Shown here in pieces: positions 988 through 41,724 of a stretch of DNA of 53,030 bases. Made by a program: the position numbers and the translations under genes. The notes beneath the pieces are model-generated. The model was not told the DNA's origin. It searched no databases and saw only the letters and a list, made by a program, of their open reading frames with translations. The DNA is taken from positions 1 through 53,030 of the IMG/VR virus record IMGVR_UViG_3300025120_000074, one strand, 5' to 3'. Numbering within the stretch: position 1 is the stretch's first letter; each line of letters begins with the position of its first letter. This DNA is from a virus. Taxonomy: Duplodnaviria > Caudoviricetes.

Positions 988-3135
988 TCATTTACTTGCT
1001 AAACCCTTACCTCTGGGTTTCTTTGGTTTACGTTTTGGTTTGGTTAATAATCCTCCTTTATTTAATACTCCAAAAGCATCTACTTTATCAGCACCTACAA
1101 ATTTTTCTTGTGCTTCTGAACCTGTTCCACTTGTTGCTTGATACTTATTGCCTTGCAACCCTATATTTTGTTTTGAAAGTGCTTTTAAATTATCTACAGT
1201 TTTTTGACTTTTATCTTCAGATTCTTTTGAACTACCAGAAGATACAAATTTTGGTAATGGAGATGAACTTGCTACTGCACCTGAAACTTCAGCAGCAGTG
1301 CTAGGATTTAATAAAGCTTTAAATACACTACCTATACCTTCAAACACATCTTTAATTATTGTAAGTGCTGATCCAAATAAACCAAAACCTAGTGTACTAG
1401 CAAGACCTTCTAATGCATCAGGATTATCTTTGTCATTAATAATTGCATTAATATCATCTGCAGAAACATCTTTTCCTGTAGCAGATTTTATTTCAGCAGG
1501 AATAAGTGCTACTCGTTTAGATAGAGGTAGATTATAATAGTCTGTAAAATTTAAATCTATTCCTTCTACTTTTTCTAAACGACCAAAAGAAGTTTTTAAA
1601 GCATTGTAGTTTTTATTTGTTATTAAAGCACCACCTAAATCTTCTCTTGCAATTTTTTCTGGTTCAGGTTTAGGGTCTCTATCTTTTTTAGTTTGTACTA
1701 CATTTTGTGCAGGTAGTTGTTCTATTGGAAGATAACCTTCATCAAGATACCTTTGAAAAGCAGGATTTACTACATCGTTTGTAAATGGTATTTGCATTGT
1801 TTTTCTTGTAACAGGGTCTGCAAATGTTTTGTAAGTTATTATAGCATTATTGTTTGGAAGATTTGATGCAGCAGTTTGTGCTGCTGTTGTTCCACTTACA
1901 TTACCATATCTAAAACCTTGAAGTGGATCAGTTATTAAAGCAGTAGCTGCTTTATTTTTTATACCTGTTTCAAGAGATTTAACATCTCCTGCAACATTGT
2001 AGCCACCTATGTAACCACCTTTTGCAGCACCTGTTATTTTTCTAATCATGTCTTCTTCTTCAGAGGATAACTCTTCTTCTCCTGAACTAGTAATCATTGC
2101 TACAGCTACAGGCTCACCACCTATACGTCCATTACGTTCCATATTAGCTAAACCTATCTTAGCATTAGTACGTAAATCTTCAAAAAACTTTACTCCATAA
2201 AACCTTACCACATCAGCAGGTACAACATACTCACCCTCACTAAGTTGTGCAGGTATGTCATCTCTAACCTCTTCTGCTAGAGAACCAGAAGGTACATCAT
2301 TACCACTTACAGGGTCTTTGGTTGTACCATCATCCTTAAGACCGCCTTCTTCCATAAAAGCCATATTCATTTGTTGTTTCATTGCTGTACCACCCTTATT
2401 AAATTCTTTACCTGTGTTTTTTGTAAACATATAACCCTGTTGACCTGCTAATCTATCACCCTCTAATATATTTTTATATATTTTTTCACCTTCTTTACCA
2501 CGTAATTTTATGTTTGATAAAATATCTATAGGTACATATTCATGTCCTAAATCTTTTAATGCAGCAATTCTATGAGCACCTTCATGTCCAATGTTAAGTA
2601 ATGCACTTCCTTTTTTAGGTACGTCTACATGTAAAAAAGGAGGAGCTAGTTTTTTCCCACTTTGTATTGCTGATTTTAAAGACTCTATACGGTCAATACC
2701 CATACTACTTGAGCCATCTCCTGCTGAAATTCTTCTTCTATTAGGAAATAATTTTTCAGCTTCTTCTATAGGAACAAGGACTGTTTTTACATAGCTATCC
2801 CTTCCTTCAATTCCCCTACCAAAATCCATAGGAGGAGTTTCTATTTGTGAACCTACTAAACCCATAGGATTATCTGTTTTATTTTTAGAAAATAACTTTA
2901 ATGTTTTTTGAATACCCTTACTTGCTATTTTACCAACAGGTGTTACTCCTGCTAGTGCTAAACCTGCATCTATAGCTGCTTGACTGTAGTTGCCTGTTAG
3001 TAATGACTTTCCAATATCTGCAATATCAATTAGAGTACCTGTTACAGGAGCATTACGCACTACATTTTTTATTCTTTTAAAAGTTTTTTCACTTTTAAAT
3101 GGGTTAGAACTAAATGCTTTTTCTGTTTCAGACAT
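988..3135 (-). CDS. modular virion/injected protein: pre-toxin-TG-like N-terminus, ParB/Srx-like domain, conserved DDIPAxLSEGEYV domain, basic tail
   Basis: EGAHRIAALKDLGHEYVPI (ParB-like GxHR), DDIPAQLSEGEYVVPADVV, several xKGG motifs. Confidence 0.6.
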   Translation of the reverse strand: MSETEKAFSSNPFKSEKTFKRIKNVVRNAPVTGTLIDIADIGKSLLTGNYSQAAIDAGLALAGVTPVGKIASKGIQKTLKLFSKNKTDNPMGLVGSQIETPPMDFGRGIEGRDSYVKTVLVPIEEAEKLFPNRRRISAGDGSSSMGIDRIESLKSAIQSGKKLAPPFLHVDVPKKGSALLNIGHEGAHRIAALKDLGHEYVPIDILSNIKLRGKEGEKIYKNILEGDRLAGQQGYMFTKNTGKEFNKGGTAMKQQMNMAFMEEGGLKDDGTTKDPVSGNDVPSGSLAEEVRDDIPAQLSEGEYVVPADVVRFYGVKFFEDLRTNAKIGLANMERNGRIGGEPVAVAMITSSGEEELSSEEEDMIRKITGAAKGGYIGGYNVAGDVKSLETGIKNKAATALITDPLQGFRYGNVSGTTAAQTAASNLPNNNAIITYKTFADPVTRKTMQIPFTNDVVNPAFQRYLDEGYLPIEQLPAQNVVQTKKDRDPKPEPEKIAREDLGGALITNKNYNALKTSFGRLEKVEGIDLNFTDYYNLPLSKRVALIPAEIKSATGKDVSADDINAIINDKDNPDALEGLASTLGFGLFGSALTIIKDVFEGIGSVFKALLNPSTAAEVSGAVASSSPLPKFVSSGSSKESEDKSQKTVDNLKALSKQNIGLQGNKYQATSGTGSEAQEKFVGADKVDAFGVLNKGGLLTKPKRKPKKPRGKGLASK

Positions 3136-3153
3136 TTATATTTACCTGTTGTT

Positions 3154-6100
3154 TCATGCTACAAAACCGCCCTGTGCCATACCTACTCTTGTTTCATTTA
3201 GTTCTACATCATTTAATATTTCACTAATGTCAATAATTTTTGCAGCTTCTTTTTTATCTCCAACATTATTTTTAAGAAATTTTTCAAAATTATTTACTAA
3301 GTTGTTTTCGTATTCACCACCTTGTCCATCTCTTAATAACTCATAAGCTTGTTGTACTTTTTGAAATTCTTTACGATCTACTTTAATAGGTTGATTTTCA
3401 TATTCTAAATCTCCATTATAAGCTTTTATTTTACCTCTTGATTTTTTTACAAGATTAGCTACTGCTTCATCAAAAAATTTACCGTATATATCTTTAAATA
3501 ATTGATCGGTAGGTGCAAGTTTCATATCAAAACTACCGTCCCCTGTTTCTAAAAATTCTTCAAAGGTTGTTAATCCAGTTGCTGAATTTTGAGTACGTAC
3601 TGTCACAATTGATTGTGGTATATATATATTTGGATCATAATACTTCTGTTTACCATCTGAATCAACTGCAAGTTCTCCAATTTTATCTGTATTAAAACCT
3701 ATTTTATTATCTATATACAGTTTTTCTAAATCACCTGTATTTGTTTTATCTCTTGAACGAGCCAACATTTCTGTATTAGGTAAAACTATTCGTTTTACAC
3801 CACGTTTTTTTGCATCTAAAATTAAAGCAGATAAACTATATTCTAAAATTTGTTGTATATTTTTAATAGGATAACTGGGATTACCTTCTATAAAATCTTC
3901 AGATTTTTTTCTTATTGCTTCATAAACTTTATTTATACCTAATTGTTTAACAAGTACTATTTCACCATCAACCATTTTTACTTGTACATTTTTATTTGTT
4001 CCAATATTTTTTATTATTTTTCCAAAGCCATCTTTTTTATTGTCTATACCATCTTGAAGTTCTGTAACAATATTTAAAAAACTATCTCCATTTTCTTTTT
4101 TCTTTTTAACAATATTTAATAAATTTTGTGGCAGAGAAAAAATTTTTCTGCCTTCTTCTAATATACTTTCTAAATCAGGGTTATCTAAATCATCCATAAA
4201 TTGTTTTTGAATTGCATCAAATTGTAATTCATCAATAACTGCTACATCACCATTAATAGTATAACGTGAATGAGCTAATTGATCTTCACCAAAACCATGT
4301 AAAAGTCTTGGGTCATAAAATTTTCTAGAATCATCAGGAATACCATATTTTTTTATATTGTTAATATCTCCTGCTGTTCTTTCTATTAATTGTCTTTCTA
4401 TTAAATAAGCTAAAAAACTTTTTGTTTCTTCTATTGTTTTTGGATAATTAAGTTGTTGATCTAAAAATAAATTTTGCATACTTGATTCTGCATTAAAGGT
4501 TGTATTAAAACTTTTTAATATTTCTTCTTTAGAAATATACTGATCAGAATAAGGCAATCTTACTTCTTTACTATCATCTCTATAAAAATTTTTCCAAAAA
4601 GTATCTCGCCATTGTGCATTAATTTTATTTTTTGCTCCTGTTACTCTAGTAGTAGTTTCGTTTTCTGTTCCCTCATTAAATATTTTTTTAAAACTTCTAA
4701 AATCTATTTCTTTAGATAATGATCCATCTAAAGTTTTAAATGGTCCTATATCCATTATAAGTGACCTAAGTAAATTATCGTGTACTAATCCACTAAAAGG
4801 AGGAGGTTTTCCATAATCTCCTTGTTCAAAATAATCTGGATTAGTTCTATAAGTATAAGTTTGCCCTGAGTTTTTTAAAATAAATTCATCTGATGGTTTA
4901 TTTGTAGTCTTAAAAAGAAAAGAATATTCAGGTTTTAAATTAAGTTTTTTTACATTAATTAGATAGTTTTTAATTTTACGAGGGGAATAAAAACTAATAG
5001 GATTATTATCTGAATCTATTATATCTATTTGTCTAGATAATTCAACTCTATCTTCTATATCTTCTATTGTACTTGGCTGTCTTACAACAATTTCTACGTA
5101 GCCATTAATTTTTGGAGATTTGAGATTCGTATTTGAATTAGTTTTTAAACCAAGCTCAACCTGTCTTTGTACACTAGCAAATTGAGGTCTTGCCCGATTA
5201 GTTTTATAACGATTAAAAGGAAAAATAGGGTAAGTTCCTTCTTGCATTGCAACTTCTGCAGAATCAATATCAAGAGATTCAGCTTCTTTTTTTTGTTGTA
5301 CTATAGCAGAAGTTTTACCAAAACCAGATTTTGAATCTGAATAAACATCTACCTCAAAATTAATACCTAAAGAATTAGGTTCTGATCTTTGAAGTTTTTT
5401 ATTTATAAAATTAAAATACTCTTGATTTAAATAGTTTAAATAAACTTCTTTATTAGGTATAATTAAAGGTCTAGTGTTTTGTCCAGTTTCATCAAATAGT
5501 TCAATTCTGTATCCACCAAGTTCTTCATCAAACTGAGCATCTTGTATTTGTTTATTAAACTGTAAAATATAACTTTCTACAGTTTTAGGTTCTAAAGGAT
5601 CTATATATGATGCTATTATTCTTTCTTCATCTATAGGAATAATACCATTATCTTCAAAAAATTTAGCACTTAATCCATCTTCACTAAAAATGTAATCTGC
5701 ATCAACACTTTTTAAAATTGCTTTATTATCTTCAGGTATATTTTTTATATAGTTATATAGAGTCGAGGGTAGTATAAGTTCAGATGTAAAATCAGTTGTA
5801 GGAAAATTACGCAGTGCTTCTACAGTAGGACTAAATGTTGTTATACCACTTCGTGTACCTAAATCATATATATCAAGATTTATTGGGTTTGTATTTATAT
5901 CTAATATTTTTTTATCATCAAAATTTACGTAAGGTAAAACTGGACCACCATCTAATTTAATTGGTTTTCCAAAAACAGGTACTGTTGTTTCTGCAATGGT
6001 ATTATATTCATCTATTTTTTGTACTGTTAATGCAGGGGTTGTTGTTACAAGATTATCATAAACATTTTTAAAAATTTCTTTATTATATTTTTCTTCTGTT

Positions 6101-6627
6101 TGTGGAATTACTTTTAATGATTTTGTAGTTAAACTTGCTAAAGGTACTACCTCAGATGCAATTAATAAATCTCCAAGAACACCTTCTTTTGCTTGATTTA
6201 ATTGTTCCCATGTTGCTTCTTCTTTATTTACATCAAATTTTTCAAAGAGTCTTTCATCTAAACTTTTTGTAAATATATCTCTAGCACTCTTATATATTTC
6301 TGTACCATAGTTTATTGTGCCTTGTACTGGACCTGTTCCACCAAATATTTCAGGTGTAAGAAAATCTTTACCGCCTTCATAAACACTTGAAATTACTTGT
6401 TGTCCAAATTCAACTGGGTCTTCTTTAATTATTTTAATAAGGTTTTCACCTGCTGAAGTAAAGTTATTATCTAATCCAAGTAAATTATCAACAGCTAACT
6501 CACCGTAGCTAAGTGGTTCTTTAACATAAGTATCACCAGTTGCTATAGCTTTTTGAATGGCTGCTTCTGTATCACTATCTTGACTAAAAATTACACCACT
6601 GTTATTTGATAATTTACTCAGTGCCAT
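3154..6627 (-). CDS. large polyvalent-type protein, probably virion-packaged
   Basis: 1157 aa, AT-rich; AHSRY...IDELQFD and LILDAKKRGVKRIVL motifs; ends MAQGGFVA. Confidence 0.5.
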   Translation of the reverse strand: MALSKLSNNSGVIFSQDSDTEAAIQKAIATGDTYVKEPLSYGELAVDNLLGLDNNFTSAGENLIKIIKEDPVEFGQQVISSVYEGGKDFLTPEIFGGTGPVQGTINYGTEIYKSARDIFTKSLDERLFEKFDVNKEEATWEQLNQAKEGVLGDLLIASEVVPLASLTTKSLKVIPQTEEKYNKEIFKNVYDNLVTTTPALTVQKIDEYNTIAETTVPVFGKPIKLDGGPVLPYVNFDDKKILDINTNPINLDIYDLGTRSGITTFSPTVEALRNFPTTDFTSELILPSTLYNYIKNIPEDNKAILKSVDADYIFSEDGLSAKFFEDNGIIPIDEERIIASYIDPLEPKTVESYILQFNKQIQDAQFDEELGGYRIELFDETGQNTRPLIIPNKEVYLNYLNQEYFNFINKKLQRSEPNSLGINFEVDVYSDSKSGFGKTSAIVQQKKEAESLDIDSAEVAMQEGTYPIFPFNRYKTNRARPQFASVQRQVELGLKTNSNTNLKSPKINGYVEIVVRQPSTIEDIEDRVELSRQIDIIDSDNNPISFYSPRKIKNYLINVKKLNLKPEYSFLFKTTNKPSDEFILKNSGQTYTYRTNPDYFEQGDYGKPPPFSGLVHDNLLRSLIMDIGPFKTLDGSLSKEIDFRSFKKIFNEGTENETTTRVTGAKNKINAQWRDTFWKNFYRDDSKEVRLPYSDQYISKEEILKSFNTTFNAESSMQNLFLDQQLNYPKTIEETKSFLAYLIERQLIERTAGDINNIKKYGIPDDSRKFYDPRLLHGFGEDQLAHSRYTINGDVAVIDELQFDAIQKQFMDDLDNPDLESILEEGRKIFSLPQNLLNIVKKKKENGDSFLNIVTELQDGIDNKKDGFGKIIKNIGTNKNVQVKMVDGEIVLVKQLGINKVYEAIRKKSEDFIEGNPSYPIKNIQQILEYSLSALILDAKKRGVKRIVLPNTEMLARSRDKTNTGDLEKLYIDNKIGFNTDKIGELAVDSDGKQKYYDPNIYIPQSIVTVRTQNSATGLTTFEEFLETGDGSFDMKLAPTDQLFKDIYGKFFDEAVANLVKKSRGKIKAYNGDLEYENQPIKVDRKEFQKVQQAYELLRDGQGGEYENNLVNNFEKFLKNNVGDKKEAAKIIDISEILNDVELNETRVGMAQGGFVA

Positions 6628-6808
6628 TCATTTCATCCCTAAGATATTTAAGTCTGCGTAGTGCAGAGATTGAACCCTGTGCTTTATAGAGAGTATGTAT
6701 ATCGTCTGCTTGTTCCATTGCACTGTGATGTATTGCAATAGTATGATTTAAGTATTGTACAAAGTTATCCCACAGTTCTTTATTGTTGACTAACTGTTTT
6801 AAGTTCAT
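6614..6808 (-). CDS. small helical protein downstream of portal
   Basis: 64 aa with YKAQG...LRRL motif; overlaps both neighbours. Confidence 0.65.
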   Translation of the reverse strand: MNLKQLVNNKELWDNFVQYLNHTIAIHHSAMEQADDIHTLYKAQGSISALRRLKYLRDEMNGTE

Positions 6809-8916
6809 TGCACAGAACCACTGTTAGCAGAAAACCCTTGCTCATCAGGAGTAGGCACTGAACCTGTTCCTATGTTTCCACCACCTGATCCCTGAGTGTC
6901 TTGTACTTGTCCACCTACAGGAGCTTGTCCTTGTGGTGGTGGTTGACCCTGTGGTTGTTGAGGTGGAGGTGGTGGTGGATTTTGTTCTTGAAATTTCTTA
7001 AGTATCTCAGCCTGTACTGCAGCCTGACTCATTGAGTTAGCTACCTTATCAGGGTCTAAGTCCATGCTCTTAGCAATCTCTCTAACTAAGTAGTCCATTC
7101 GTGCAAAGGGAGCTAGTGCAGGATTAGATACAGTTTGCATAAATTGCATGAGTCTTTGACTACGTACTTCGTTAGCCATTAAACTTTCTGTACCCTGTGC
7201 CTTAACTTCAAGATCACCTTTTATCTCAGGGTCAAAGTCAAACTGCATGTTAAAACTAAAGAAGGCTTTACCCAGTGGTCCTAGTAAGTAGTCATCTACA
7301 TTCTTAATAACACTCCGTATAGAACCATTAGCAGCATTCATAAGCATAGAGATACCAGAGGCTGTTCTACCTACTCCTGTTACACCTGTTTGTCCATGTG
7401 CAAATGATGCAAGTCCTGTACTCTCATCTGACAGTTGTCTAGCCTTATCAAACATCTGCATATTTTCATTAGAAACATTAGGAAACTTAGTTCCAAAAAT
7501 ACCTTGTCCAGGTGCTCCTCCCTGTCTTCTAAATACTTTTCCAGGGTATACACTTAAGTCTTGTCCAGGTACTAAGTTAGTTTCATCTACTTCTATTAAT
7601 AGATTACCTGACAGTGCAGCATTGTCTACAGACATACGCATAAACCCATTCATTAATGTCTGAGTATCATCCATGTTTTCTGCAATACCCACACCAAATA
7701 TACTGTATGGGTTCATTTCATAGGGTGTAGCATAGTAAGGTAAATAGGCAGGAGTAAATGGATTCATAACTAAACGTAGTACATTGTTGTTACATACCCA
7801 CACGTTAACACTAACTTGCTCTACATCTTTTAACTCATCAGGGATATCTACATCATGCTGTTCAATAACTTCTTTGTCAACAAATCCCCAGAACTCTAGG
7901 ATTTCAAAACGCTCTGCTCTGTCTTCTTCAGCGTTGTCTTCCATGACATGTTCCCACCACTCCTTATTGTACATCTCTCCTTCTGCAAGAGATTTATCAA
8001 TAGCATTGGCACGAAAGAATGGTCTACGTTTAAGAGCACGTAATTGAGAACGTGACATCTTATGTCTTTCTATAACATACTCTGCTTCATCCATATTATT
8101 TGCGTCAGGATCAGGATAAAAATTCCATACAGATACATTAGAAGTTTGTGGTACTGTTTTAAAAATAGGAGTGTACACACCCTCATCATCCCAATTAGGA
8201 TACTCTTTGTCTACAGCAAATGGTCCTTTCATAATGCCAGTACCAAAGAGTGCAGCTTCAAATGCAGCAGAACGTAACTGCTTCTTAGCATTTGACTCTT
8301 CTAGTTGGTCATGTATCTTCTTCTCCATCTTCTTAGCTGCAACCATAGCAGGATGAAAGTTTACAGAGGTAGGACTACCAGTAGATTTAAACTCAATATC
8401 ATCCTCAACTGCACTCAGATCGTCTGTAAGTGGTCCTACACGCTCGTTAAACTCTGGCATAGTCTCACCTGCCAGAAGTTGTGGAGCGTCTGTAGCACCT
8501 GTTTCTGTTTCTCCTGTGGCTTCTTTAAGTTGAGCATTAGTTTCTAGACTAACTGTATCTTCTACTCCATCAGGTAAAACTGTAGGGTTAATACTAAGAG
8601 GAAACTTATTACTACCAAATAAAACTTCTACAAGTTGTCCGTAGGCTGCAAGTACTTTTGTTTTTGTAACTTTAACAAATACTCTTGATTTTTCTGTAGA
8701 TGTAAATTGAACCTCTGGGCTATATAAACCACGGTAGTTACGATAGCCTTGTATCCACCTTTCCTCATCACCTCTCCTAGCTGTTTCAGCCTTACGATAT
8801 TTACCCTTAACAAACTTTACAATATCTCCTACGTTTTCATCTGAATAAGAATCTTCTTCCATATCTTCAATAGCAACTACTTGTTCAGAGTCTGCAGTTA
8901 TATTATCTTCTTCCAT
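6805..8916 (-). CDS. portal protein
   Basis: 703 aa; FGTGIMKGP, WNFYPDP, Pro/Gln-rich C-tail; follows the terminase. Confidence 0.9.
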   Translation of the reverse strand: MEEDNITADSEQVVAIEDMEEDSYSDENVGDIVKFVKGKYRKAETARRGDEERWIQGYRNYRGLYSPEVQFTSTEKSRVFVKVTKTKVLAAYGQLVEVLFGSNKFPLSINPTVLPDGVEDTVSLETNAQLKEATGETETGATDAPQLLAGETMPEFNERVGPLTDDLSAVEDDIEFKSTGSPTSVNFHPAMVAAKKMEKKIHDQLEESNAKKQLRSAAFEAALFGTGIMKGPFAVDKEYPNWDDEGVYTPIFKTVPQTSNVSVWNFYPDPDANNMDEAEYVIERHKMSRSQLRALKRRPFFRANAIDKSLAEGEMYNKEWWEHVMEDNAEEDRAERFEILEFWGFVDKEVIEQHDVDIPDELKDVEQVSVNVWVCNNNVLRLVMNPFTPAYLPYYATPYEMNPYSIFGVGIAENMDDTQTLMNGFMRMSVDNAALSGNLLIEVDETNLVPGQDLSVYPGKVFRRQGGAPGQGIFGTKFPNVSNENMQMFDKARQLSDESTGLASFAHGQTGVTGVGRTASGISMLMNAANGSIRSVIKNVDDYLLGPLGKAFFSFNMQFDFDPEIKGDLEVKAQGTESLMANEVRSQRLMQFMQTVSNPALAPFARMDYLVREIAKSMDLDPDKVANSMSQAAVQAEILKKFQEQNPPPPPPQQPQGQPPPQGQAPVGGQVQDTQGSGGGNIGTGSVPTPDEQGFSANSGSVQ

Positions 8917-8925: not shown

Positions 8926-10479
8926 TTAATATCCAAATGTTGCATCAGCAGCTTGAAAACCAGTGCGTTGACTTGCAGGGTCAAAATCAAATAAACTGCT
9001 TCTTGGTCTTGTCATTATTCCATATCTTAAAGCATCGTATAGGTGATCTTCAGAATGAGTGTCAACATCTTCAGAGTTATTCTTATCTAGTGGTATAGAC
9101 GGTAGTTGAGAAGTTGTTTGGACACACGAATTAAAAAATACTATTCTTGGTTCTTCTGTAAACTCATCAACTTGTAATCGTCTGTGTACTTCGTTTTTAC
9201 CTGCTATTCTTGACCCTCTACTCCTATCTGCAGGTCTCCAACGACAACCCTTTAATATCATTTGTTCTGCTAGTGATGGTCCTGTATCTCCACGTTTATG
9301 CCAGAGTGACGAATCAAGAACACCATATCTAATTTTTTCTCCATCCTCTGCTTCTAGTATTATATCTGCTAAGTCTGCAGCAGTAACCTTAGACACGTAC
9401 AACTCCCTGTAGACAACTAGTTGTTCTGATGGGCTGACGGCAAACCATAAGACTCCTGTGTGGCTTCCGTATCCGTAGTCACAGGCACGAAACCTAGACC
9501 AACTATGGGGTATATCATAAGGTTCAATAACATGGATATTCCTGTTCCATTCTGGAAAAGCAGCCCCCTCATTAACATCCCAGTTTCCTTCTAATAATTG
9601 TTTCCGTTGGTGTTCAGGTAGTGATAATAAGTTGGCTTCATACATCCCATCGTCAGCTAAGTAAGGATTGTCAAACAATGTAGCAGGTATAAACCTACGT
9701 TTAAATAATGGCTCTCCTTCACGACTGTGACCTTTAGGCATCTTTAAGGTTTCACCTGTTGCAATGTCTGTAGCCCAGAATGATTCCCCATGTGGGGCAG
9801 GTTCTATAAACATTTTCTTAACCCAACTGTGTCCATTTCCACCTGGGTTTGAAGTAGCTCTCTGATATAAGTCTAAGCCACTTCCTTTTGTAGTACGCAG
9901 TCTTGACCTCATATAGTCAAATGGGTATGGACTTGCCCACTGCGTTAACTCGTCAAATCCTATCCAACTAAAAGCCTGTCCTTGGTATCGTGTAACATCA
10001 TCATCTCTATCTAAGTAGGACAACCAGAGTGTTGCTCCTGATGGTGCTACCCAAGTCTTGTCTCTTTCCATAAACTTTATATTTGGTATTGCCTGTGGGT
10101 AGAGTTGTTTGGATACTGATATAAGTTCTCTTAGTTCTTCTGTTGTCTTTCTTACAAGTAGCCCACGGAAATGTGGGTTGTTGAGGTATCTAACAGGGTC
10201 TGCTAACATTGCATAACTCTTACCACCACCTGCACTGCCACCATATAATACTTCTCGTTCACTGGCTGAAAGAAACTCTGTCTGTGGTCCTTTGTTTGGT
10301 TGAAAGATTACTCCCTGTGCTTTTTCTACTTCTATTGGTTCTGGTTTAACTTGGGGATAAACTTTCTGTTCTTCCACCAATTCTTTTTTCTTCAAGCTTT
10401 TCCGCTTTCTCAAGGGCTTCTTTGTACCTTTGAGCAAGGTAGCGTTGCGTTGAAGCATCTGTTTTACGTTTTTGCTCAA
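8926..10479 (-). CDS. terL: terminase large subunit (true start may be nearer 10380)
   Basis: Walker A YGGSAGGGKS, Walker B IGFDE, ATSNPGG coupling motif, RNase H-like DYGY...DH.YDALRY. Confidence 0.95.
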   Translation of the reverse strand: MSKNVKQMLQRNATLLKGTKKPLRKRKSLKKKELVEEQKVYPQVKPEPIEVEKAQGVIFQPNKGPQTEFLSASEREVLYGGSAGGGKSYAMLADPVRYLNNPHFRGLLVRKTTEELRELISVSKQLYPQAIPNIKFMERDKTWVAPSGATLWLSYLDRDDDVTRYQGQAFSWIGFDELTQWASPYPFDYMRSRLRTTKGSGLDLYQRATSNPGGNGHSWVKKMFIEPAPHGESFWATDIATGETLKMPKGHSREGEPLFKRRFIPATLFDNPYLADDGMYEANLLSLPEHQRKQLLEGNWDVNEGAAFPEWNRNIHVIEPYDIPHSWSRFRACDYGYGSHTGVLWFAVSPSEQLVVYRELYVSKVTAADLADIILEAEDGEKIRYGVLDSSLWHKRGDTGPSLAEQMILKGCRWRPADRSRGSRIAGKNEVHRRLQVDEFTEEPRIVFFNSCVQTTSQLPSIPLDKNNSEDVDTHSEDHLYDALRYGIMTRPRSSLFDFDPASQRTGFQAADATFGY

Positions 10480-11115: not shown

Positions 11116-11322
11116 TCATATCCTTACTGACTTGTCAATACATTTATACTGTATTGTGTGTGGAGCAGGAAGACTAGGTGTCATTTGTTTTACAAACGCT
11201 CCTACCATTTTTCTACATTCTTGTTGTGTTATTGCCATTTCTTGTGGATTAAACATCTTACAATCTACAGATTGGTCTATAGGTGATAGTAAACATATTG
11301 TAACTAACGGCAAAAACATCAA
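11116..11322 (-). CDS. small exported Cys-containing protein in the lysis cluster
   Basis: Hydrophobic N-terminus, four Cys, coupled to the endolysin. Confidence 0.5.
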   Translation of the reverse strand: MMFLPLVTICLLSPIDQSVDCKMFNPQEMAITQQECRKMVGAFVKQMTPSLPAPHTIQYKCIDKSVRI

Positions 11323-11771
11323 CTCAATTCAAAGTGTGGACCATCAATAAATGGTCTTCTACCTTGTCCTCTTCTAAGATCAACATACGCATTCATAGCA
11401 TCTTCCATAGTACCACTCCACTGACGCATATCATCTATCTGCCAAGCTGCACCCCAACGTATACCTACGTCCTCAAGCTTTGCAGCTTCCTTCATAGCGT
11501 CAGCAATGTCATCATAGACATTGAGTTCCCATGAAGCCCTCCCACCAATATATGCCATTAAGTCTACAGCTAGTCCTTCCAGATGCTTTGACTTCATGGT
11601 TTGTGAAGCTCCTTTAGCTACTAGTGCTTCCTGCTCTTCTATGGTACGCATACCACAGATAACGCCAAAGTCTATCTTCGTAAGTTCTATAGCTTTCTTA
11701 ACTACACGTACCATGTCTGCATTAACACCGTCTAGTCTATCTTGGCTTCGTTGTGAGAGAGTGAATCCCAT
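11319..11771 (-). CDS. endolysin, peptidase M15 family (L-Ala-D-Glu peptidase-like)
   Basis: G.RT.EEQ, SKHLEGLAVD and DGPHFEL zinc motifs. Confidence 0.9.
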   Translation of the reverse strand: MGFTLSQRSQDRLDGVNADMVRVVKKAIELTKIDFGVICGMRTIEEQEALVAKGASQTMKSKHLEGLAVDLMAYIGGRASWELNVYDDIADAMKEAAKLEDVGIRWGAAWQIDDMRQWSGTMEDAMNAYVDLRRGQGRRPFIDGPHFELS

Positions 11772-11941: not shown

Positions 11942-12314
11942 AGGTTCTTAACCCACCTAGTCCTAACATACCCATCAGGACTGTCATCAAACTTCCCATA
12001 TCAAACTCAGGTATAGGTGGTATGTCCACTCCTGCTAATGATACACCAAATAAAATTAAAGGGGATAGAATAAAATGATACAGCAAAGCTATACCACATA
12101 TCCAACCAACAAAAGGTCTCCAACCGCCTTTAAATAAACTTCCACTTGCAGCTTCCGCTTTGTTTACTTCTACCTGTGCCAGTGCCAACTGTTGTGCATG
12201 TTGGTCTGACATGGTAGCAATCTCATGGGCTAGTCTAGCCTTCTCATCAGCATCAGGTACTACCTTGTCTAAGATACTTGATACTGGTCCTATGAGAGAA
12301 GCTATAATGCTCAT
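11913..12314 (-). CDS. holin, GTA 3TM (DUF3154-like)
   Basis: VNKAEA...GGWRPFVGW...L.GMLGLGGLRTYEK. Confidence 0.85.
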   Translation of the reverse strand: MSIIASLIGPVSSILDKVVPDADEKARLAHEIATMSDQHAQQLALAQVEVNKAEAASGSLFKGGWRPFVGWICGIALLYHFILSPLILFGVSLAGVDIPPIPEFDMGSLMTVLMGMLGLGGLRTYEKQKGITK

Positions 12315-12523
12315 TACTTTTTCTTACCTTTAATAACACCACCCTTATTAAAGTTATCAATATATTCCATACCACCATTAACATACTGTCCTGCTAGTCT
12401 TACAAGACTTTTAGCAAGAGGTGATTTAGAATCTAAAGTTTTATGGATTCTGCGTAATCGTTTTAAACCTTTTATATCAGTTGCATTCATATCTTTTTTT
12501 AAAGCTGCATCATATCTAGTCAT
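12314..12523 (-). CDS. small basic protein with C-terminal FNKGG motif
   Basis: 69 aa ending FNKGGVIKGKKK; coupled to the holin. Confidence 0.6.
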   Translation of the reverse strand: MTRYDAALKKDMNATDIKGLKRLRRIHKTLDSKSPLAKSLVRLAGQYVNGGMEYIDNFNKGGVIKGKKK

Positions 12524-12529
12524 ATCTAA

Positions 12530-12772
12530 TCACCCACATTTACAGTCGGGGTTGTTACACCCTTTGCCTTTTACAGATGACTTAGTACCATTAACATAGA
12601 TACCAAACCATGCTGCACCTGCCCCCACAACGACAGAAACAAACCCTGCCTGTGCGTTGTTAGGGTCTGTTAAATTCATAAACCAATTACACGTTTGATA
12701 AAACACTATCATATAAGATAGTATTAACATACGTGGCACTATTCTCCAAGCTGATAGTTTTTCTGGTGTCAT
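12530..12772 (-). CDS. small two-TM membrane protein (holin-like)
   Basis: WRIVPR then two hydrophobic helices. Confidence 0.6.
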   Translation of the reverse strand: MTPEKLSAWRIVPRMLILSYMIVFYQTCNWFMNLTDPNNAQAGFVSVVVGAGAAWFGIYVNGTKSSVKGKGCNNPDCKCG

Positions 12773-12799
12773 TTCTTGCCCCCTAAATAATTTACGGTA

Positions 12800-13051
12800 C
12801 TACCTGTATCTAGCCGTCTTCTTAGCCACCTTTTTGGGTTGGGCAACATGTTGTTTGCCCTTACCCTTACCCAATCTCTTAGCCTTACTGGTTGCAGCAT
12901 ATTCAGAGGAAGATAGATTCTTGATAGCATTAGCAGGAAGGTAACGCTCACCAGTTGCTTTTGAACCCTGCGTAGAAGGTTTACCACTCTTGGTTCTCCA
13001 CTTTTGTTTACCCCAATCCTTAAGACTCTTCTGAGACTTTGCGAGTGCCAT
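12800..13051 (-). CDS. basic protein resembling the C-terminal half of DUF5872-like proteins
   Basis: SQKSLK.W.KQKWRTKSG...GERYLP...GKQHV.QP. Confidence 0.6.
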   Translation of the reverse strand: MALAKSQKSLKDWGKQKWRTKSGKPSTQGSKATGERYLPANAIKNLSSSEYAATSKAKRLGKGKGKQHVAQPKKVAKKTARYR

Positions 13052-13233
13052 TACTTCTTTTTCTTCTTTACAGCACCACCTTTAGCCATGCCCTTCTTCT
13101 TCATTGCACCGCCTTTAGCCATACCTTTCTTCTTCATCATGCCACCCTTATTCATCTTACCCTTACCGTCTGCAGCAAAAGCAGGAATCATCTTACCATT
13201 TTTTTTAACCATCGGTAGTTTTTTTGCAGCCAT
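13051..13233 (-). CDS. Lys/Met-rich peptide with tandem M[AN]KGG repeats
   Basis: MNKGGMMKKKGMAKGGAMKKKGMAKGG; GAGGAG RBS before the ATG at 13233. Confidence 0.65.
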   Translation of the reverse strand: MAAKKLPMVKKNGKMIPAFAADGKGKMNKGGMMKKKGMAKGGAMKKKGMAKGGAVKKKKK

Positions 13234-13234
13234 C

Positions 13235-13912
13235 TTATTTCTCCTCATTATATAAGTTATCAAATACTCGTTCAGTATTCCAGACGTAATCAGTTTCTAG
13301 TTTAGAATGAAACACATGTTGGTTGGGTCTAAAGTCTGGTGCTCCTTCTCCTGTTTCAAACCATGCAGGGTGCGTTACTCTCACTCTGTTATTGGGTAAC
13401 GCAACAATGTTACCTGTGTACTTACCTGCGTCCATTAACTCTAGCACATGACTTTGTTTGTGTTGTGCAGGGTCATCAGCTATTTCACTGTCTGTGTAGT
13501 CTACAGTAAAGTAATACTTAGCAGGGTAAAATTCTCCATCAACTTTAGCAATCCACGGTGCAGGAGTTGCTCTATTTAAAACATACACAGAGTGGTCATG
13601 TGACATACAATCCCAAGGTTGTGCTGCATATACTGGCAGTGGTTCTGCCCATTCTTCTACAGGTGTATCTCCAACCAAAGCTGTAATAGGCAACCTAGCC
13701 CACATTGCTCCACCATGTATGTTTGGTTCATCTGTACTATCTGACTCACAACCTGTGAAGATAACTTGAAAACTCAAACATCTGTTTGGCATACTCGTTA
13801 CTGCTATTACCATACAGTGTAAAAATTCACCATGGTACTGTTCAAAATTACACGTATACTCTCGTCTTACCCATGCCTTGAAGTATGGGATGTTGCTTTG
13901 TAAGTAGGGCAT
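13235..13912 (-). CDS. conserved phage protein of unknown function
   Basis: 225-aa globular, aromatic-rich ORF coupled to its neighbours. Confidence 0.7.
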   Translation of the reverse strand: MPYLQSNIPYFKAWVRREYTCNFEQYHGEFLHCMVIAVTSMPNRCLSFQVIFTGCESDSTDEPNIHGGAMWARLPITALVGDTPVEEWAEPLPVYAAQPWDCMSHDHSVYVLNRATPAPWIAKVDGEFYPAKYYFTVDYTDSEIADDPAQHKQSHVLELMDAGKYTGNIVALPNNRVRVTHPAWFETGEGAPDFRPNQHVFHSKLETDYVWNTERVFDNLYNEEK

Positions 13913-14208
13913 TAAGCATTTTCCTTTTCCTTTTGCTTTCTCAACTGAAGCTTTGCTTGTTTTGCAAGTCTCACAACTTCAGTCTTACCCATAACTTTAG
14001 CACGTTGTTCCATCACTGTCAAGATTTGAATTTTCCTAGCGTAAGATTTTTTAATCCTCTTGACTTTTGCGATTGTTTCTTTAGCATCTTTTACAGTAGC
14101 AAACTTTATACTCACTGTATCTTTTGGATTCTCATCTGTGTACAGTCTTCTGCCACTACCTTTAGGTTTTTTACCAGTTCCTTTTAGAGGGTCTTTTTTC
14201 TTTGTCAC
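13912..14208 (-). CDS. small basic protein
   Basis: RRLYTDENPKDTV.IKFAT; GTG start; coupled to the next gene. Confidence 0.65.
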   Translation of the reverse strand: MTKKKDPLKGTGKKPKGSGRRLYTDENPKDTVSIKFATVKDAKETIAKVKRIKKSYARKIQILTVMEQRAKVMGKTEVVRLAKQAKLQLRKQKEKENA

Positions 14209-14210
14209 AG

Positions 14211-14336
14211 TTATTTAGCTTTTTTACTTGTTATGCCTTTTAAAACTTTGGCTTGACCTGCGTGTAACTTAGAAGCTTTATTTAAACCCTTAATAACTTT
14301 TTTAACTTTCTTTTTACTTTGATTAGTTAATGCCAT
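14211..14336 (-). CDS. 41-aa basic protein (not in ORF track)
   Basis: MALTNQSKKKVKKVIKGLNKASKLHAGQAKSLKGITSKKAK; TAATG coupling. Confidence 0.6.
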   Translation of the reverse strand: MALTNQSKKKVKKVIKGLNKASKLHAGQAKVLKGITSKKAK

Positions 14337-14500
14337 TATTTATAACCCCCACCCTTGGCTTTATATTGTTTGGCAACCATCTGGGCTTTACGTGCAGACC
14401 ATTGACCTGCACCTCCACCCTTAGAACTTGCTTTAACCTTGGCAACTAAGTTTTTACGCATAGTTGGTTTCGTGTAATTCTTAGCTGCATTTACTACCAT
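14336..14500 (-). CDS. 54-aa protein resembling the N-terminal half of DUF5872-like proteins (not in ORF track)
   Basis: YTKPTMRK...KGGGAGQWSARKAQMVAKQYKAKGGGYK. Confidence 0.7.
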   Translation of the reverse strand: MVVNAAKNYTKPTMRKNLVAKVKASSKGGGAGQWSARKAQMVAKQYKAKGGGYK

Positions 14501-14656
14501 TTATTTTATCCCATAAACTCTTGCATATATTTCACTGCGTCCTATACCTAAGTCTTGCAGTTCTCTATCACTAAATCTATATAACTCACCCATTGCTGCT
14601 CTACGTGCTCTGGCTTCTTGTGATCGTTTAAACCATTCCTTTAGTATCTTAATCAT
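14501..14656 (-). CDS. DUF1127 (YjiS-like) small protein (not in ORF track)
   Basis: 51 aa, RRAAMGELYRFSDRELQDLGIGRSEI; GGAGG RBS. Confidence 0.8.
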   Translation of the reverse strand: MIKILKEWFKRSQEARARRAAMGELYRFSDRELQDLGIGRSEIYARVYGIK

Positions 14657-14659
14657 TGT

Positions 14660-14697
14660 ACTACCTCCTGTGTTTTGTGTACGAGGTAGTTATACCA
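14660..14697 (-). promoter_or_regulatory. RBS-sequestering hairpin plus extended -10 promoter of the DUF1127 gene
   Basis: ACUACCUC/GAGGUAGU 8-bp stem covers the SD; TGG-TATAAC overlaps the 5' arm. Confidence 0.5.
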
Positions 14698-14737
14698 TAT
14701 CTACTCCTATCTTACTATAGATAGTTATGCATTTCCG

Positions 14738-15283: not shown

Positions 15284-15293
15284 TTTGGTTCTC

Positions 15294-15875: not shown

Positions 15876-15920
15876 CAAGAAACGACAATAAATCTCCCCC
15901 ATCTCTAAAATATATTTTCG

Positions 15921-16010
15921 TTACATTAAGTATACCTTATGTTCTTTAAGTATATACTTATAGGTGGAGGAGATTAGGTATACTTAATGTTACATTAAGT
16001 TACTTTAAGT
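15921..16010. repeat. array of quasi-palindromic ACWTWAWGT motifs
   Basis: tacttaatgt-tacattaagt-tactttaagt in 10-bp phase (15981-16010) plus copies at 15923-15951. Confidence 0.7.
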
Positions 16011-38613: not shown

Positions 38614-41600
38614 TTAGTCACTCCCAATATTTAAAAATCCATCATCGCCAAATATATTTAAACCTTTATTACCAAACAACATCCTTGCAAAGAAGCCAGT
38701 CTTAGCTGCACCCTCTGCAGCATCTGCTTGTTCTCTCACACCCTCTAAACTTTTATCTCCAAGGAGAAGGCGAGTAGACCTTTCAAGAGCACTCTCAGAT
38801 TGAGCAACAGCAAACTGCATAAGGTCTCTTTCTCTCTGCCATATCTGGTCAAGTACTTTATTTGACAACCCATTAACTTGTTTAGCATATTCAAAGTTAG
38901 ACTGATTAGCTGCAGCAGTATTCATTGTAGTAGAATCTTGTCTCCACTTAGCATTAGCCTGTGCTATTACTGCATACTGTTGAGCATTAAACATCTCTCT
39001 CTGGTTTTGTATCTCAGAGTTATACTTAGTCATGGCATTAGCTTCATTAGCATTAAATTGTTTCATTGCATTAGTTTGAGAAGAGTTAAACTGACTAACT
39101 TGTGAAGCCATAGATATCATAAACTGGTCACGTTGATTTTCATTTGTAGCATTAAATTGTGCCATAGCATTTTCTGCTGCTGCATCTGTAAGTATAGAGT
39201 TAGCTAGTGTCTGCTGTTTAAACATCTCCATCTGCTGACTGTTAGCTAAGTTAGTCATGTCCATCTGTAAAAAGTTTTGTGCATTCTGAACTGCAGCCTG
39301 TTGTAAGTTACTAAGGTTAGCCATATCTAAGTTAGCCAGTGATGCAGCTTCAGCCATAACTACAGCCTGACTGTTACTAAGATTAGCTAGGTCTACTGTC
39401 TGTGCCATACGTGCATTCTCTAATGCTATTTGTTGGTCAGCACTAAAGTTCATGTTAGCTATTTCACTAACCTTAGATGCATTGATAACTTTAGCTTGAA
39501 AGTCTTGGTCAAACTCTATCTGTAAAAACTTAGCACGTTGCTCACCCTTAAACAATGCCATCTGTTGTTTGTTACCTGCATCTATCTGGGCTATAGGTAG
39601 TGCAGCTTCCATAGCAGCCTGTATAACTGCCTGACCTGCCATTGATGAAGCACCTAGTCCTCTAGCAGCTAGTATTTGATTTGCTTTACGCATACTTCCT
39701 GCTGCCCATGCAGGTGTATTACCACCCTCAAACTGATCCATAAGAGTTGATAGTTCATCTTGAACAGATGCTGCTGCTATTTCACCTGTACCAAAAGCAT
39801 CGCCTACTTTAGTCTGATCTACTGCACTACCTGATACTAACTCACTACCCTTATACATAATGTTTCCATCAGCATCTTTAATAGTTTCACCCTTATCATC
39901 TTTTAAAGGTTCTCTTGTTTCCTGTAGTGTACGAGTAGGAGCATCCTGTACAGTCTGTGCTTTGTCATCATACGTAAGTTTACCTTCTGCATCTAATACA
40001 GGTGTACCATCAGGATTTAATATAGGTTGACCTAACTGTGCAGCCTGTACATCTGATACACTTGTACCTGCAGCCTGTTGACCTGTTATGGTAGCTGCAT
40101 CAGACAATGCTGTTTGCATTTTAATTTGTTGTTTATAGATTGGCATATCATTACTATCTACAATAGGTTTACCTTCACCATCTGTTGCAGGTATAGGTCT
40201 TCCTCTACCATCTAATACATTTTCCATAACAGGTTTACCATCTTTACCTATGACAGGTTGAGATGTGTACTCACTTGTAGCAGGAGCAAAAGACATTTGG
40301 TTTATATCAGTTTGAGTACCAACAGCAGTAGCAGGATTATATTCAGTTTGTATATTTCTTCCTGTAGGATTACCATCTTTATCATATTCAGGAGTTAAGT
40401 TAGTAGGTAAATTAGCTTGAGTAACTTCTTGAACTTGAGCTATTTGATTTGCATCAACAATAGGAGCGACAGGTAGTGCTTGACCTGTGTTAGCACCCAT
40501 AACTGTACCTGCAGCATTAGGGTCTACATTAGCTACAGGAGCAGCAGCTATAGCACCTGCAGGATTTACAAATGCCTGTGCTTGAGCATCACTCTGTGCC
40601 TGTGCAATTTGTTCAGCGGTAAGATTAGCAGCACCAGTTTGAATAGGTTTGTTTACATTATATCCACCTTCTTGATAACCTTGAACATACATACCTTGTG
40701 CAGCGGTGGCTACAGGAGAATAACCTTGTGGAATAGGTTGTTGTGCTTTACCATCTATAAAAGTAATATACTGTATCATACCTTGTCTATTTTGATATTG
40801 ACGCTGTTCTATTTTACCTGCAAAATCTCCTGTACCTGCAGCCTGTTGTTCAGCTACAGTCTGTGGTTGCATATAAGATTGCTGTGCAAGACCTCTCTGT
40901 GTAAAATCTGCAGCTTGATTTACAAATTGATTTTCATAAGTAGGGATTCCAACTTCTGTTGTACCTATACTATCTGTTACAGGTTCATAGGGTACAGAAG
41001 GTTCAAAAGGAGTAGTGGTAGGAGTATAAGCAGGTACATCAGTACCTGTAACTGTTGGTCCAGTATAAGCAGGTTCTTCTTCTACAACAGGTGTTTCTTC
41101 AATTATTTCAAAAGGAAGTTCTTCTTCTTCTACTACTGAAGGAGATGGAATAAGACTAGCTACATAAACTTCTCCCCTGTCTGTTAATATTTTAGCATCT
41201 TCTTGGTCTATGTCTCCATCATTATCAGCATCTTTCATTGCATCAAGTCGAGCAGAACCTTTTGCATCAGCTATACTTGGTGTTGTTAAAATAAAGTTAT
41301 TTTCTTCAGGTGGTGATCCTACAACACTTGTTCCTGAAACAGGTATAACTCCATCAAATTGAGACAACTCATCTGCAGTAAAATTACCGCTACCATCTGT
41401 ATCAAACATAGTAGCTGTTGCTCTAGGTATCATTGTGTTATCACTAAGTTTAACCCAATTTAAATTCATTAATTGAGCTTCTTTAGCAGGATCATTGGAT
41501 ACATCTATAGTGTAAACTTCTTCTCCACCTGACCAAGAAGTTACACCTAAACCACCTGTATTAAATCCTTTAATTACACCACCTTTATTTGAACCTACTA

Positions 41601-41724
41601 CACCTAATCCAATACCTCCGCTTGCACTAGAGGCTAGAATTTGTCTTATTTGTGCCATACTACTAGGTTTAAAACCAAACTTTGCTTCAACTAATCTTGC
41701 AGCTTCTGGAAATTTCATTGCCAT
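38614..41724 (-). CDS. internal virion/pilot-like protein with Q/A/N-rich coiled C-half, EF-hand loops and DxDGxP repeats
   Basis: RGLGASSMAG, ANLSN.QQA repeats, xxxGG motifs. Confidence 0.6.
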   Translation of the reverse strand: MAMKFPEAARLVEAKFGFKPSSMAQIRQILASSASGGIGLGVVGSNKGGVIKGFNTGGLGVTSWSGGEEVYTIDVSNDPAKEAQLMNLNWVKLSDNTMIPRATATMFDTDGSGNFTADELSQFDGVIPVSGTSVVGSPPEENNFILTTPSIADAKGSARLDAMKDADNDGDIDQEDAKILTDRGEVYVASLIPSPSVVEEEELPFEIIEETPVVEEEPAYTGPTVTGTDVPAYTPTTTPFEPSVPYEPVTDSIGTTEVGIPTYENQFVNQAADFTQRGLAQQSYMQPQTVAEQQAAGTGDFAGKIEQRQYQNRQGMIQYITFIDGKAQQPIPQGYSPVATAAQGMYVQGYQEGGYNVNKPIQTGAANLTAEQIAQAQSDAQAQAFVNPAGAIAAAPVANVDPNAAGTVMGANTGQALPVAPIVDANQIAQVQEVTQANLPTNLTPEYDKDGNPTGRNIQTEYNPATAVGTQTDINQMSFAPATSEYTSQPVIGKDGKPVMENVLDGRGRPIPATDGEGKPIVDSNDMPIYKQQIKMQTALSDAATITGQQAAGTSVSDVQAAQLGQPILNPDGTPVLDAEGKLTYDDKAQTVQDAPTRTLQETREPLKDDKGETIKDADGNIMYKGSELVSGSAVDQTKVGDAFGTGEIAAASVQDELSTLMDQFEGGNTPAWAAGSMRKANQILAARGLGASSMAGQAVIQAAMEAALPIAQIDAGNKQQMALFKGEQRAKFLQIEFDQDFQAKVINASKVSEIANMNFSADQQIALENARMAQTVDLANLSNSQAVVMAEAASLANLDMANLSNLQQAAVQNAQNFLQMDMTNLANSQQMEMFKQQTLANSILTDAAAENAMAQFNATNENQRDQFMISMASQVSQFNSSQTNAMKQFNANEANAMTKYNSEIQNQREMFNAQQYAVIAQANAKWRQDSTTMNTAAANQSNFEYAKQVNGLSNKVLDQIWQRERDLMQFAVAQSESALERSTRLLLGDKSLEGVREQADAAEGAAKTGFFARMLFGNKGLNIFGDDGFLNIGSD

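Follow-up and report, generated by a model that had tools for sequence, protein, structure and literature searches.

Why do several late proteins of one marine phage carry the same short peptide ending in Gly-Gly, and why does it stand where one protein module gives way to the next? The question is raised by the IMG/VR virus record IMGVR_UViG_3300025120_000074, the whole of which (53,030 bases, linear, CheckV completeness 95%) is the window analysed here and is a near-complete genome of an HMO-2011-type marine podovirus. An earlier look at this DNA, here called the original prediction, had proposed the pattern [MFYLA]-[AN]-x-G-G as a candidate packaging or processing tag of swappable virion cargo. 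As judged by comparison with homologous proteins, HMO-2011-type marine podoviruses have a module-end motif specific to their lineage, hydrophobic-[N/A]-[K/E]-G-G, and the role that we tentatively favour for it, at a probability of about 0.35, is that of a Gly-Gly-directed processing site at module ends, accompanied by Lys-rich DNA-binding tracts.

The motif and its close variants had been counted about 15 times in six late proteins, and all 16 instances listed at that time were found in the genes named, although the regular expression given for them misses four, MEEGG, YSMGG, SNKGG and YQEGG. The carriers, all encoded on the minus strand, are a protein of 715 amino acids (aa) encoded after the portal gene (988..3135; FNKGG at residue 245, MEEGG at 261, AAKGG at 370 and LNKGG at 691), the 1157-aa post-portal protein encoded just before it (3154..6627; ending in ..VGMAQGGFVA, with the motif at 3166..3180), a 69-aa basic protein (12314..12523; FNKGG), two very small proteins (13051..13263, with MNKGG and twice MAKGG; 15089..15283, with YSMGG, MNKGG, YAKGG and also MFYGGG) and a 1036-aa protein (38614..41724; SNKGG at residue 45, FNTGG at 54 and YQEGG at 350), residues 45-58 of which read SNKGGVIKGFNTGG (41551..41592).

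For a statistical comparison, the strict pattern [MFYLA][AN]xGG was counted in the 43 minus-strand, late proteins (11,901 aa) and the 30 plus-strand, early proteins (5,001 aa), and 2000 shuffles of each protein served as the null model. The late proteins hold 14 matches against 3.16 ± 1.77 expected, a number that none of the 2000 shuffles reached, and for the core [MFYL][AN]KGG the figures are 8 and 0.13 (again 0/2000); in the early proteins the strict pattern does not occur (0.47 expected), in line with the earlier remark that it had not been noticed in the replication arm. The GG dipeptide as such is not enriched (80 vs 77.5), and three strict matches that had not been listed before (LNDGG in 32683, AAEGG in 47228 and ANGGG in 49909) are probably due to chance. 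It should be noted that the motif was defined after the data had been seen, and that three small genes account for six of the eight core matches, with five in the tandem-repeat genes 13051 and 15089 and one in 12314. When both repeat genes are left aside, a hydrophobic residue at position -3 is still enriched before GG (19/60 vs 10.2, p=0.004), whereas [AN] at -2 (12/60 vs 8.8, p=0.16) and K at -1 (7/60 vs 4.0, p=0.1) are not significantly so. Taken alone, the enrichment figures for the window, and those for two isolates given below, are suggestive only; that the motif exceeds chance follows from the conservation of its position across hundreds of homologues.

These positions are best described for the 715-aa protein, in which a constant domain is flanked by a variable N-terminal and a variable C-terminal module, the latter being followed by a Lys-rich tail. 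The N-terminal module (residues 1-244; 2404..3135; containing ..NIGHEGAHRIAALKDLGHEYVPI..) is followed by the junction FNKGG (residues 245-249; 2389..2403) and then by the constant DDIPAxLSEGEYVVPADVV domain of about 100 aa (~residues 252-345; 2101..2382), in which 42 columns are invariant among 14 sequences. MEEGG (2341..2355) opens this DDIPA domain, AAKGG (residues 370-374; 2014..2028) follows it, and the protein terminates in LNKGGLLTKPKRKPKKPRGKGLASK (988..1065), which combines the motif with a Lys/Pro-rich tract. Within residues 245-385 the sharply conserved sequence is ..DPVSGNxVPxGSxxxEVRDDIPAxLSEGEYVVPADVVRFxGVKFFEDLR..GRIGGEP. At E<=1e-3, a profile search with the domain retrieved 3,812 cluster representatives (50% identity); the domain has more than 7,000 sequence clusters, and relatives were recognised in 6,727 of 7,121 candidates of similar length and in 637 of 900 longer candidates. 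Nevertheless, neither the protein nor its domain matches anything in Pfam, NCBIfam or the PDB sequences, and the 14 records of isolated phages that contain the domain, all of the HMO-2011 type, always annotate it as 'hypothetical protein'. The N-terminal module likewise has no Pfam match and no family model; its HEGAHRIAAL stretch (residues 180-205), which we take to resemble the ParB/sulfiredoxin-type motif of DdrB-like ParB domains, includes the sole HExxH (HEGAH) of the late proteins. A weak match of a motif protein to a CAP-Gly chain (E 0.24) was treated as chance.

Positions were counted in the 240 best homologues retrieved, and a site was scored as hydrophobic-x-x-GG. Such a site lies about 50 aa ahead of the domain core, at the junction before the domain, in 229/240 homologues, and a second one stands at the start of the DDIPA domain in the same number (229/240); 216 of the 240 have one or more sites 60-135 aa past the core, and in 166 the last 30 aa contain one. 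The placement at domain boundaries and near C-termini that had been read from the window is thereby borne out. Across 120 long forms there are 423 occurrences of the strict motif (40.5 ± 6.9 in shuffles), and 117 of these forms end, within the last 30 aa, in a GG site with a hydrophobic residue followed by lysines (consensus ..RNKGGLMTKGKKK; type hydrophobic-N-K-G-G-L-M-T-K-G-K-K-K). The tail GGLLTKPKRKPKKPRGKGLASK is identical on homologues that differ upstream, and the tails are of the KPKRKPKKPRGKG / KPKAKPKRKK type. Joints that are unrelated to each other carry the motif inside the long forms as well (FAEGG-DTVRPEP, FNKGG-DVIGPKSE and FNEGG-DVKNQM, with the hyphen at the joint), with up to six copies per polypeptide. 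The extended consensus is P-K/R-x-F/L-N/A-K/E-G-G, and the residue directly after GG is variable (A, T, L, I, M, D or S). A hydrophobic residue and a Lys tract after the motif, which had been described as frequent, are a property of the small basic family and of C-terminal tails but not of internal junctions.

Selection acts on the protein, since the repeat units of the motif use differing synonymous codons and the motif codons differ from the ribosome-binding sites of the phage. In a conserved block of 20 codons, 15 loci show 107 synonymous and 56 non-synonymous codon differences, a count that is biased because these loci were selected by their peptide pattern.

Gene fusions and fissions fall at the same place. 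In relatives, the 3154-type protein and the next protein form one polypeptide with FNKGG at the joint, and two related loci (L005 and L006) are split as the window is, with an upstream protein that ends in ..VGMAKGGLV..; the window's own 3154..6627 protein has no family match, and no Pfam match even at E<=10. Among 341 family proteins, 22 start no more than 60 aa from the core, and 19 of these 22 begin two or three residues past the place of the GG. L005 has a single gene in place of the small genes 14211 and 14336, with FAKGG followed by STV at the joint, and five of the seven 14336 homologues with an N-terminal extension of at least 26 aa have [FY][AS]KGG-STV; the split copies of the window are without the motif at the place of the L005 joint. 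The 38614 protein and its orthologues HMO-2011 gp25 (MAKGGMIRKMQTGG) and CRP-13 gp39 (MATGGM), in which the motif is found at residues 52-67, share only their C-terminal halves, and in each of the three the motif falls 45-67 residues into the protein; the IMG/VR relatives of the 38614 protein, from two loci, also cover only the C-terminal half. The swappable modular architecture that had been postulated is therefore what the family displays: N- and C-terminal modules vary around one constant domain, and fusions and fissions occur exactly at the motif.

The small basic genes were compared across 80 related loci with 1835 open reading frames (ORFs). Two of them, 13051 and 15089, had been described as little more than concatemers of the motif; their recurrence in relatives (30 and 36 matching ORFs, respectively) indicates that they are real, conserved genes. 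The 13051 product, counted from the ATG at 13233, is a 60-aa protein (13051..13233) with an isoelectric point (pI) of 11.2, in which a GKMIPAFAADGKGKM core is followed by three tandem KKKGMAKGG-type units; the longest ORF begins with a TTG at 13263 and has 24 K+R in 70 aa. Among 550 candidates, 303 database relatives share the GKMIPAFAADGKGKM core and have 2-8 (median 5) tandem K-K-K-G-[M/Y]-A-[K/R]-G-G-[M/A] units at a spacing of 10-12 residues. The 15089 product (64 aa, pI 10.5, 17 K+R, 12 Met, 13 Gly) has four GG sites, and its relatives are fused to varied N-terminal parts; tblastn with this protein found nothing among isolated phages, probably owing to the low-complexity filter. In relatives, the repeat tail is also fused elsewhere, to the phrog_14910 domain (CRP-13 gp65 and several loci) and to long Lys-rich proteins, and a motif tail ends HMO-2011 gp68 (..FNRGGMVKKRKK). 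The C-terminal tail pattern occurs in 14 of the 1835 ORFs, against 0.14 in shuffles, and six of these 14 are small Lys-rich proteins without a DDIPA domain. The 69-aa protein of 12314..12523, encoded between two lysis-type membrane proteins, has no homologue in the 80 loci and ends in a tail of the polyvalent-family type discussed below (..FNKGGVIKGKKK; ..NFNKGGVIKGKKK).

No Pfam family matched 13051 or 15089 at E<=10, and none matched 14336 at E<=0.01, and thus the KGG stress-protein repeat, presumably PF10685, was not matched either. Many 13051 homologues (P0122-P0145) end in a helix, ..LT[LV]xQ[IL]RAAAKAKGYK[IL].., whereas the window copy is without the helix and ends in KKKKK; one of five scanned homologues (P0140) gave a SAP match in Pfam with an E value of 0.031 and 14.3 bits, below the cut-off of 23.9 bits. 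The minus-strand stretch 12314..15593 as a whole encodes eight small, very basic proteins (pI 10.3-11.2) interleaved with genes of the holin-like and endolysin kinds and with one metabolic gene. Among the basic proteins are two orphan PHROGs, phrog_14910 (12800..13051; 48 ORFs in the 80 loci) and phrog_17747 (14336..14500; 40 ORFs), the latter directly adjoining the small basic gene 14211..14336. The surroundings of the concatemer genes are a mixture of small basic, lysis and metabolic genes, upstream of the terminase gene and outside the recognised virion genes. The 225-aa protein of 13235..13912 (minus strand), which had been suggested as a binding partner of the motif, matches phrog_3704, annotated as 'ferredoxin' (auxiliary metabolic; E 9.8e-30), but no Pfam and no NCBIfam family. 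In some relatives (L073:4251-4688 and its counterparts in L072, L074, L076 and L077), repeat-tail proteins contain CxxC..CxxC zinc-ribbon-like segments together with Met/His-rich HKMPDGTMMKD units and an ending of the ..CGASMKPTQ.. type.

Processing is favoured because the motif stands at every fused joint, its conservation extends upstream of the GG, and fissions fall there. A cut at the motif would split fused proteins into their modules, remove N- or C-terminal extensions and turn the small concatemers into oligolysine peptides, and the Lys-rich tracts would bind DNA. The enzyme might be a host protease, a phage protein of unrecognised fold or the DDIPA domain itself. The motif is found at several unrelated joints, and therefore the processing of each joint would fit, while a single packaging tag needs no such repetition.

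Some aspects of this proposal have counterparts in known systems. The T4 protease gp21 uses L/I-x-x-E sites and an N-terminal capsid targeting sequence (CTS), and the phiKZ-type gp175 uses S/A/G-x-E sites. In T4 and phiKZ head maturation, as proposed for the window, a single short motif recurs in several late proteins that are located inside the head or injected, and there it is the place at which targeting peptides are removed and core proteins are chopped into peptides retained in the head; however, in those phages a head protease is known and the motif ends in Glu, whereas in the window the motif ends in Gly-Gly, stands at C-termini and internal joints, and no protease was found for it. The adenovirus protease AVP has the consensus (M/I/L)XGG-X. 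Its Gly-Gly-type sites are described, in the available text of PMC4246237, as lying in basic core precursors. The likeness consists of a hydrophobic residue a few positions before Gly-Gly and, on the proposed reading of the phage motif, of sites in very basic DNA-condensing precursors and of products that include a short polybasic peptide; the differences are that adenovirus is a eukaryotic virus and that AVP is a cysteine protease, a domain of which none was found in the window. The register also differs, since the hydrophobic residue is two positions before the first Gly for adenain and three positions before it in the phage (M 56% / Y 38%), followed by A/N and K/R, and no clan CE protease was found.

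A further likeness is offered by the tape-measure proteins of siphophages, DNA-conduit or ejected proteins whose cleavage takes place close to a C-terminal region rich in Gly. Lambda gpH is converted to gpH* and gpHC by a cut in such a region, with site and catalyst given as unknown and residues ~690-817 as unresolved in the accessible part of PMC12617516, and T5 pb2 is converted to pb2* and pb2C by a cut which the corresponding paper, as far as available, places between a run of hydrophobic residues and a metallopeptidase motif (bioRxiv 10.1101/2022.09.20.507954). In lambda gpH, FATGG(733)..PAGIVHRGEFV..YATGG(778), in or just after the Gly-rich region, has its elements ordered like those of FNKGG..DDIPAQLSEGEYV..AAKGG in the window. 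The last 700 residues of T5 pb2 contain one GG, in RAEGGMM (1127-1133), and it falls between the hydrophobic residues and the metallopeptidase motif just named, where the cut is placed; a pb2C of 92 residues would put the cut four residues before this GG. The resemblance may serve as a lead, not as a test. The family Tape_meas_lam_C (PF09718) was ruled out for the FATGG..GEFV part, as it maps to gpH 627-701 and does not match the window protein, and an element of the 'EVPAILQxGE' type was sought in Mu gp42 and not found there. The sole informative family match of the DDIPA core is a weak one to phrog_3547, annotated as a tape-measure protein (E 1e-4 to 2e-4).

Several observations weigh against processing. 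Pfam, PHROGs and NCBIfam revealed no protease in the window except an M15 endolysin (11319..11771), the only peptidase family detected. According to the annotation of HMO-2011, the coat protein of the group is P22-like, and coats of this type are not known to need a head protease for maturation. The tails past the last GG are strongly conserved and therefore should have a function of their own, and the 3154 protein keeps the motif with only three residues after it, so that cleavage would achieve little; both facts favour a tag that is not cleaved. The excess of the strict motif in late proteins is modest in the isolates, with 7 matches against 2.9 expected in HMO-2011 (reached by 32 of 1000 shuffles) and 6 against 3.1 in CRP-13 (99 of 1000), early proteins having 1 vs 0.76 and 0 vs 0.71, respectively. 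A broader pattern gave 23 vs 12.7 (4/1000) in HMO-2011 and 23 vs 13.5 (8/1000) in CRP-13; thus the late-over-early enrichment that was to be expected in relatives has the same direction in both isolates but is much weaker than in the window. The post-portal protein of a terrestrial relative, phiM6, has neither the motif nor the DDIPA domain, which argues that the whole system is specific to the lineage. Homology between the DDIPA domain and the C-terminus of lambda gpH (residues 700-853) was rejected, with a hhalign probability of 0.7% and a best BLASTP match of 16 aa (E 0.085). Finally, a literature search found no virion proteome for HMO-2011-type phages.

Nearly as likely as processing is a role of the motif as a short linear binding motif that stays uncleaved and serves as a packaging or tethering tag for a common receptor, which might be the interior of the coat, the scaffold, the portal or the DDIPA domain. 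The copies at junctions would then be relics of modules that were already tagged, and the concatemers would be multivalent adaptors in which tandem copies provide avidity. This would explain the near-universal C-terminal signature (166/240 homologues and 117/120 long forms), the conservation of the residues after the GG, the presence of the same tail on unrelated small proteins (12314, HMO-2011 gp68 and the phrog_14910 fusions), the 14 tail-pattern ORFs against 0.14 expected, six of the 14 without the DDIPA domain, and the ending of stand-alone upstream modules in the motif (window, L005 and L006). However, six copies per polypeptide exceed the need of one tag, and the upstream protein of the split pair 14211/14336 has lost the motif. 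A non-phage parallel would be the cargo-loading peptides of encapsulins, which are also short C-terminal peptides with Gly, hydrophobic and Lys residues that dock cargo inside a shell of the HK97 fold; they differ in having another consensus and a single C-terminal copy, and in serving a non-viral compartment. Processing, tagging and DNA binding can also be combined, as they were in the original prediction.

It is rather unlikely that the motif is part of a disordered nucleic-acid-binding element, in which DNA, possibly AT-rich DNA, or RNA is bound directly by K-G-G units that contain Met/Tyr stickers and by Lys tracts, with neither cleavage nor a specific protein partner taking part. The small proteins would in that case be histone- or protamine-like condensers of DNA in the capsid or of the host nucleoid, and the tails would tether injected proteins to the genome. 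The extreme charge of the eight clustered small proteins (pI 10.3-11.2), the tails of the KPKRKPKKPRGKG and KPKAKPKRKK types and the C-terminal helix of 13051 homologues with its sub-threshold SAP match would be in accordance with this proposal. However, the SAP match is not significant and no DNA-binding family was matched, the motifs at internal junctions are often acidic and are not followed by Lys (FAEGG-DTVRPEP, MAEGG), and charge leaves the conserved hydrophobic and N/A positions unexplained.

We regard it as improbable that the motif only provides a generic flexible linker, or reflects composition and repeats, and has no specific reader, with hinges that simply let modules unfold and thread through the tail; on this view tandem duplication and the post-hoc definition of the motif would have inflated the enrichment in the window. 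The concentration of six of eight core matches in three small genes, the loss of the -2 and -1 enrichment without the repeat genes, the weak enrichment in isolates and the ordinary frequency of GG all point in this direction; yet specific positions other than Gly are fixed across the 240 homologues (consensus P-K-x-F-N-K-G-G), the long forms have a ten-fold excess over shuffles, and the motif survives synonymous change. A signal at the DNA level that merely mimics a peptide motif, such as an internal Shine-Dalgarno sequence and start or a DNA repeat, is largely refuted and was rejected: the pre-domain site does read AAG GGT GGT, followed after 6 nucleotides by a conserved ATG at whose Met the split genes start, but ribosome-binding sites are of the AGGA/GGAG type in 40 of 65 genes and GGTGG precedes 3 of 65 starts, the ATG of the repeat genes directly follows the GG and is too near for a ribosome-binding site, repeat codons differ synonymously, and the Gly codons vary (GGT/GGC/GGA) while at the hydrophobic and N/A positions it is the amino acid that is conserved.

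Whether the motif-bearing modules are cargo is a separate question. Polyvalent proteins, which occur in phages and conjugative elements, are described by Iyer et al. 2017 (PMC5512222) as multi-domain effectors of phages with portal-terminase packaging; their genes belong to the late set, packaging and injection are likely for them, and built-in peptidases are predicted to process them. P1 DdrB is taken into heads as a processed protein, according to the same paper. The post-portal motif proteins can be grouped with them because longer relatives carry LPD23 (PF18838, 'large polyvalent protein associated domain 23'), which the precomputed annotation gives for many of the 120 long homologues and which scanning confirmed in four of five; one long homologue has NlpC/P60 and CHAP domains, and one has a putative zincin peptidase (DUF6782/SprT-like). 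The likeness extends to large multi-module proteins, late genes beside the portal gene and the shuffling of modules between relatives. The window's 3154 and 988 proteins thus appear to fit the description by position and modularity, with no named domain of their own; they differ from polyvalent proteins in matching no Pfam family, even at E<=10, and most members of the DDIPA family are without the zincin peptidase that has been invoked for processing. In the main text of PMC5512222 the words 'glycine', 'linker' and 'LPD23' each occur 0 times, and the DDIPA domain and the GG motif go unmentioned there. The claim of modular cargo is supported by this architecture and by LPD23 in long relatives, packaging and injection being predicted for polyvalent proteins in the literature.

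The cargo and ejection proteins of podoviruses (crAss001 cargo, P22 gp7/16/20 and T7 gp14-16; PMC10172136) and proteins of the MuF/SPP1 gp7 type share with the post-portal proteins a portal-adjacent gene, a large size and a predicted storage in the head with ejection ahead of the DNA; they differ in that there is no sequence or family match, and a shared delimiter motif goes unmentioned in the available text of PMC10172136. The Atlas feature score to crAss_CARG1 is 0.79, a level that is often due to chance, and the other Atlas matches are unnamed viral clusters.

The large terminase TerL (8926..10479, minus strand) shares 60-78% identity with its counterparts in the Roseobacter phages CRP-13, CRP-2 and CRP-9; for Puniceispirillum phage HMO-2011 the value is 70%. 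On the minus strand the TerL gene is followed by the portal gene (6805..8916; SU10_portal of Pfam, E 1.1e-25), a 64-aa gene, the 1157-aa and 715-aa genes and, as the last of the post-portal series, a scaffold-like gene (40..942). In HMO-2011 and CRP-13 the scaffold-like gene is separated from the tail genes by a P22-type coat gene; the coat gene is absent from the window because the contig ends (1..39 and 52840..53030, with a 5'-open ORF at 52840..53028) fall at the coat locus. The late genes form two minus-strand blocks, and the plus-strand arm at 17.2-32.7 kb comprises early and replication genes. Between the divergent late and early arms lies an AT-rich non-coding stretch of ~1.3 kb (15889..17230) with several short repeated TAAGTATA-like words, which is presumably a promoter or origin region. 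A protein of the tail-fibre region (44256..45338, minus strand) has a C-terminal C1q domain (Pfam E 1.1e-7), and HMO-2011 gp31 is annotated likewise. The early HMO-2011 gene gp04 (L088:2779-2961) is annotated as 'protease', which looks doubtful because its product is a Cys-rich protein of only 60 aa.

HMO-2011-type phages are a dominant and broadly distributed group of marine viruses, as stated in the available part of PMC9038755. The DDIPA domain is very abundant, yet no Pfam, PDB-sequence or published description of it was found, and even if the motif were only a sticky DNA-binding linker, it would be useful for the annotation of two large orphan families. The motif might also bear on how and where tape-measure proteins are cut, which the 2025 lambda paper treats as unresolved in its accessible part (PMC12617516). 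In its fullest form, which we consider a long shot, the DDIPA domain and hydrophobic-[N/A]-[K/E]-G-G would together be a self-contained code, made of a protease with its site or of a receptor with its ligand, that loads, tethers and releases swappable injected effector modules in the most abundant group of marine podoviruses, with concatemers giving rise to oligolysine peptides that neutralise packed DNA; the system would then parallel adenovirus AVP/pVII/mu in a phage and might use the same chemistry as the cutting of lambda and T5 tape-measure proteins. If that were true, a single code marking the ends of injected modules would make it possible to predict which proteins travel with the DNA, to find the enzyme or the receptor, and to tag foreign cargo.

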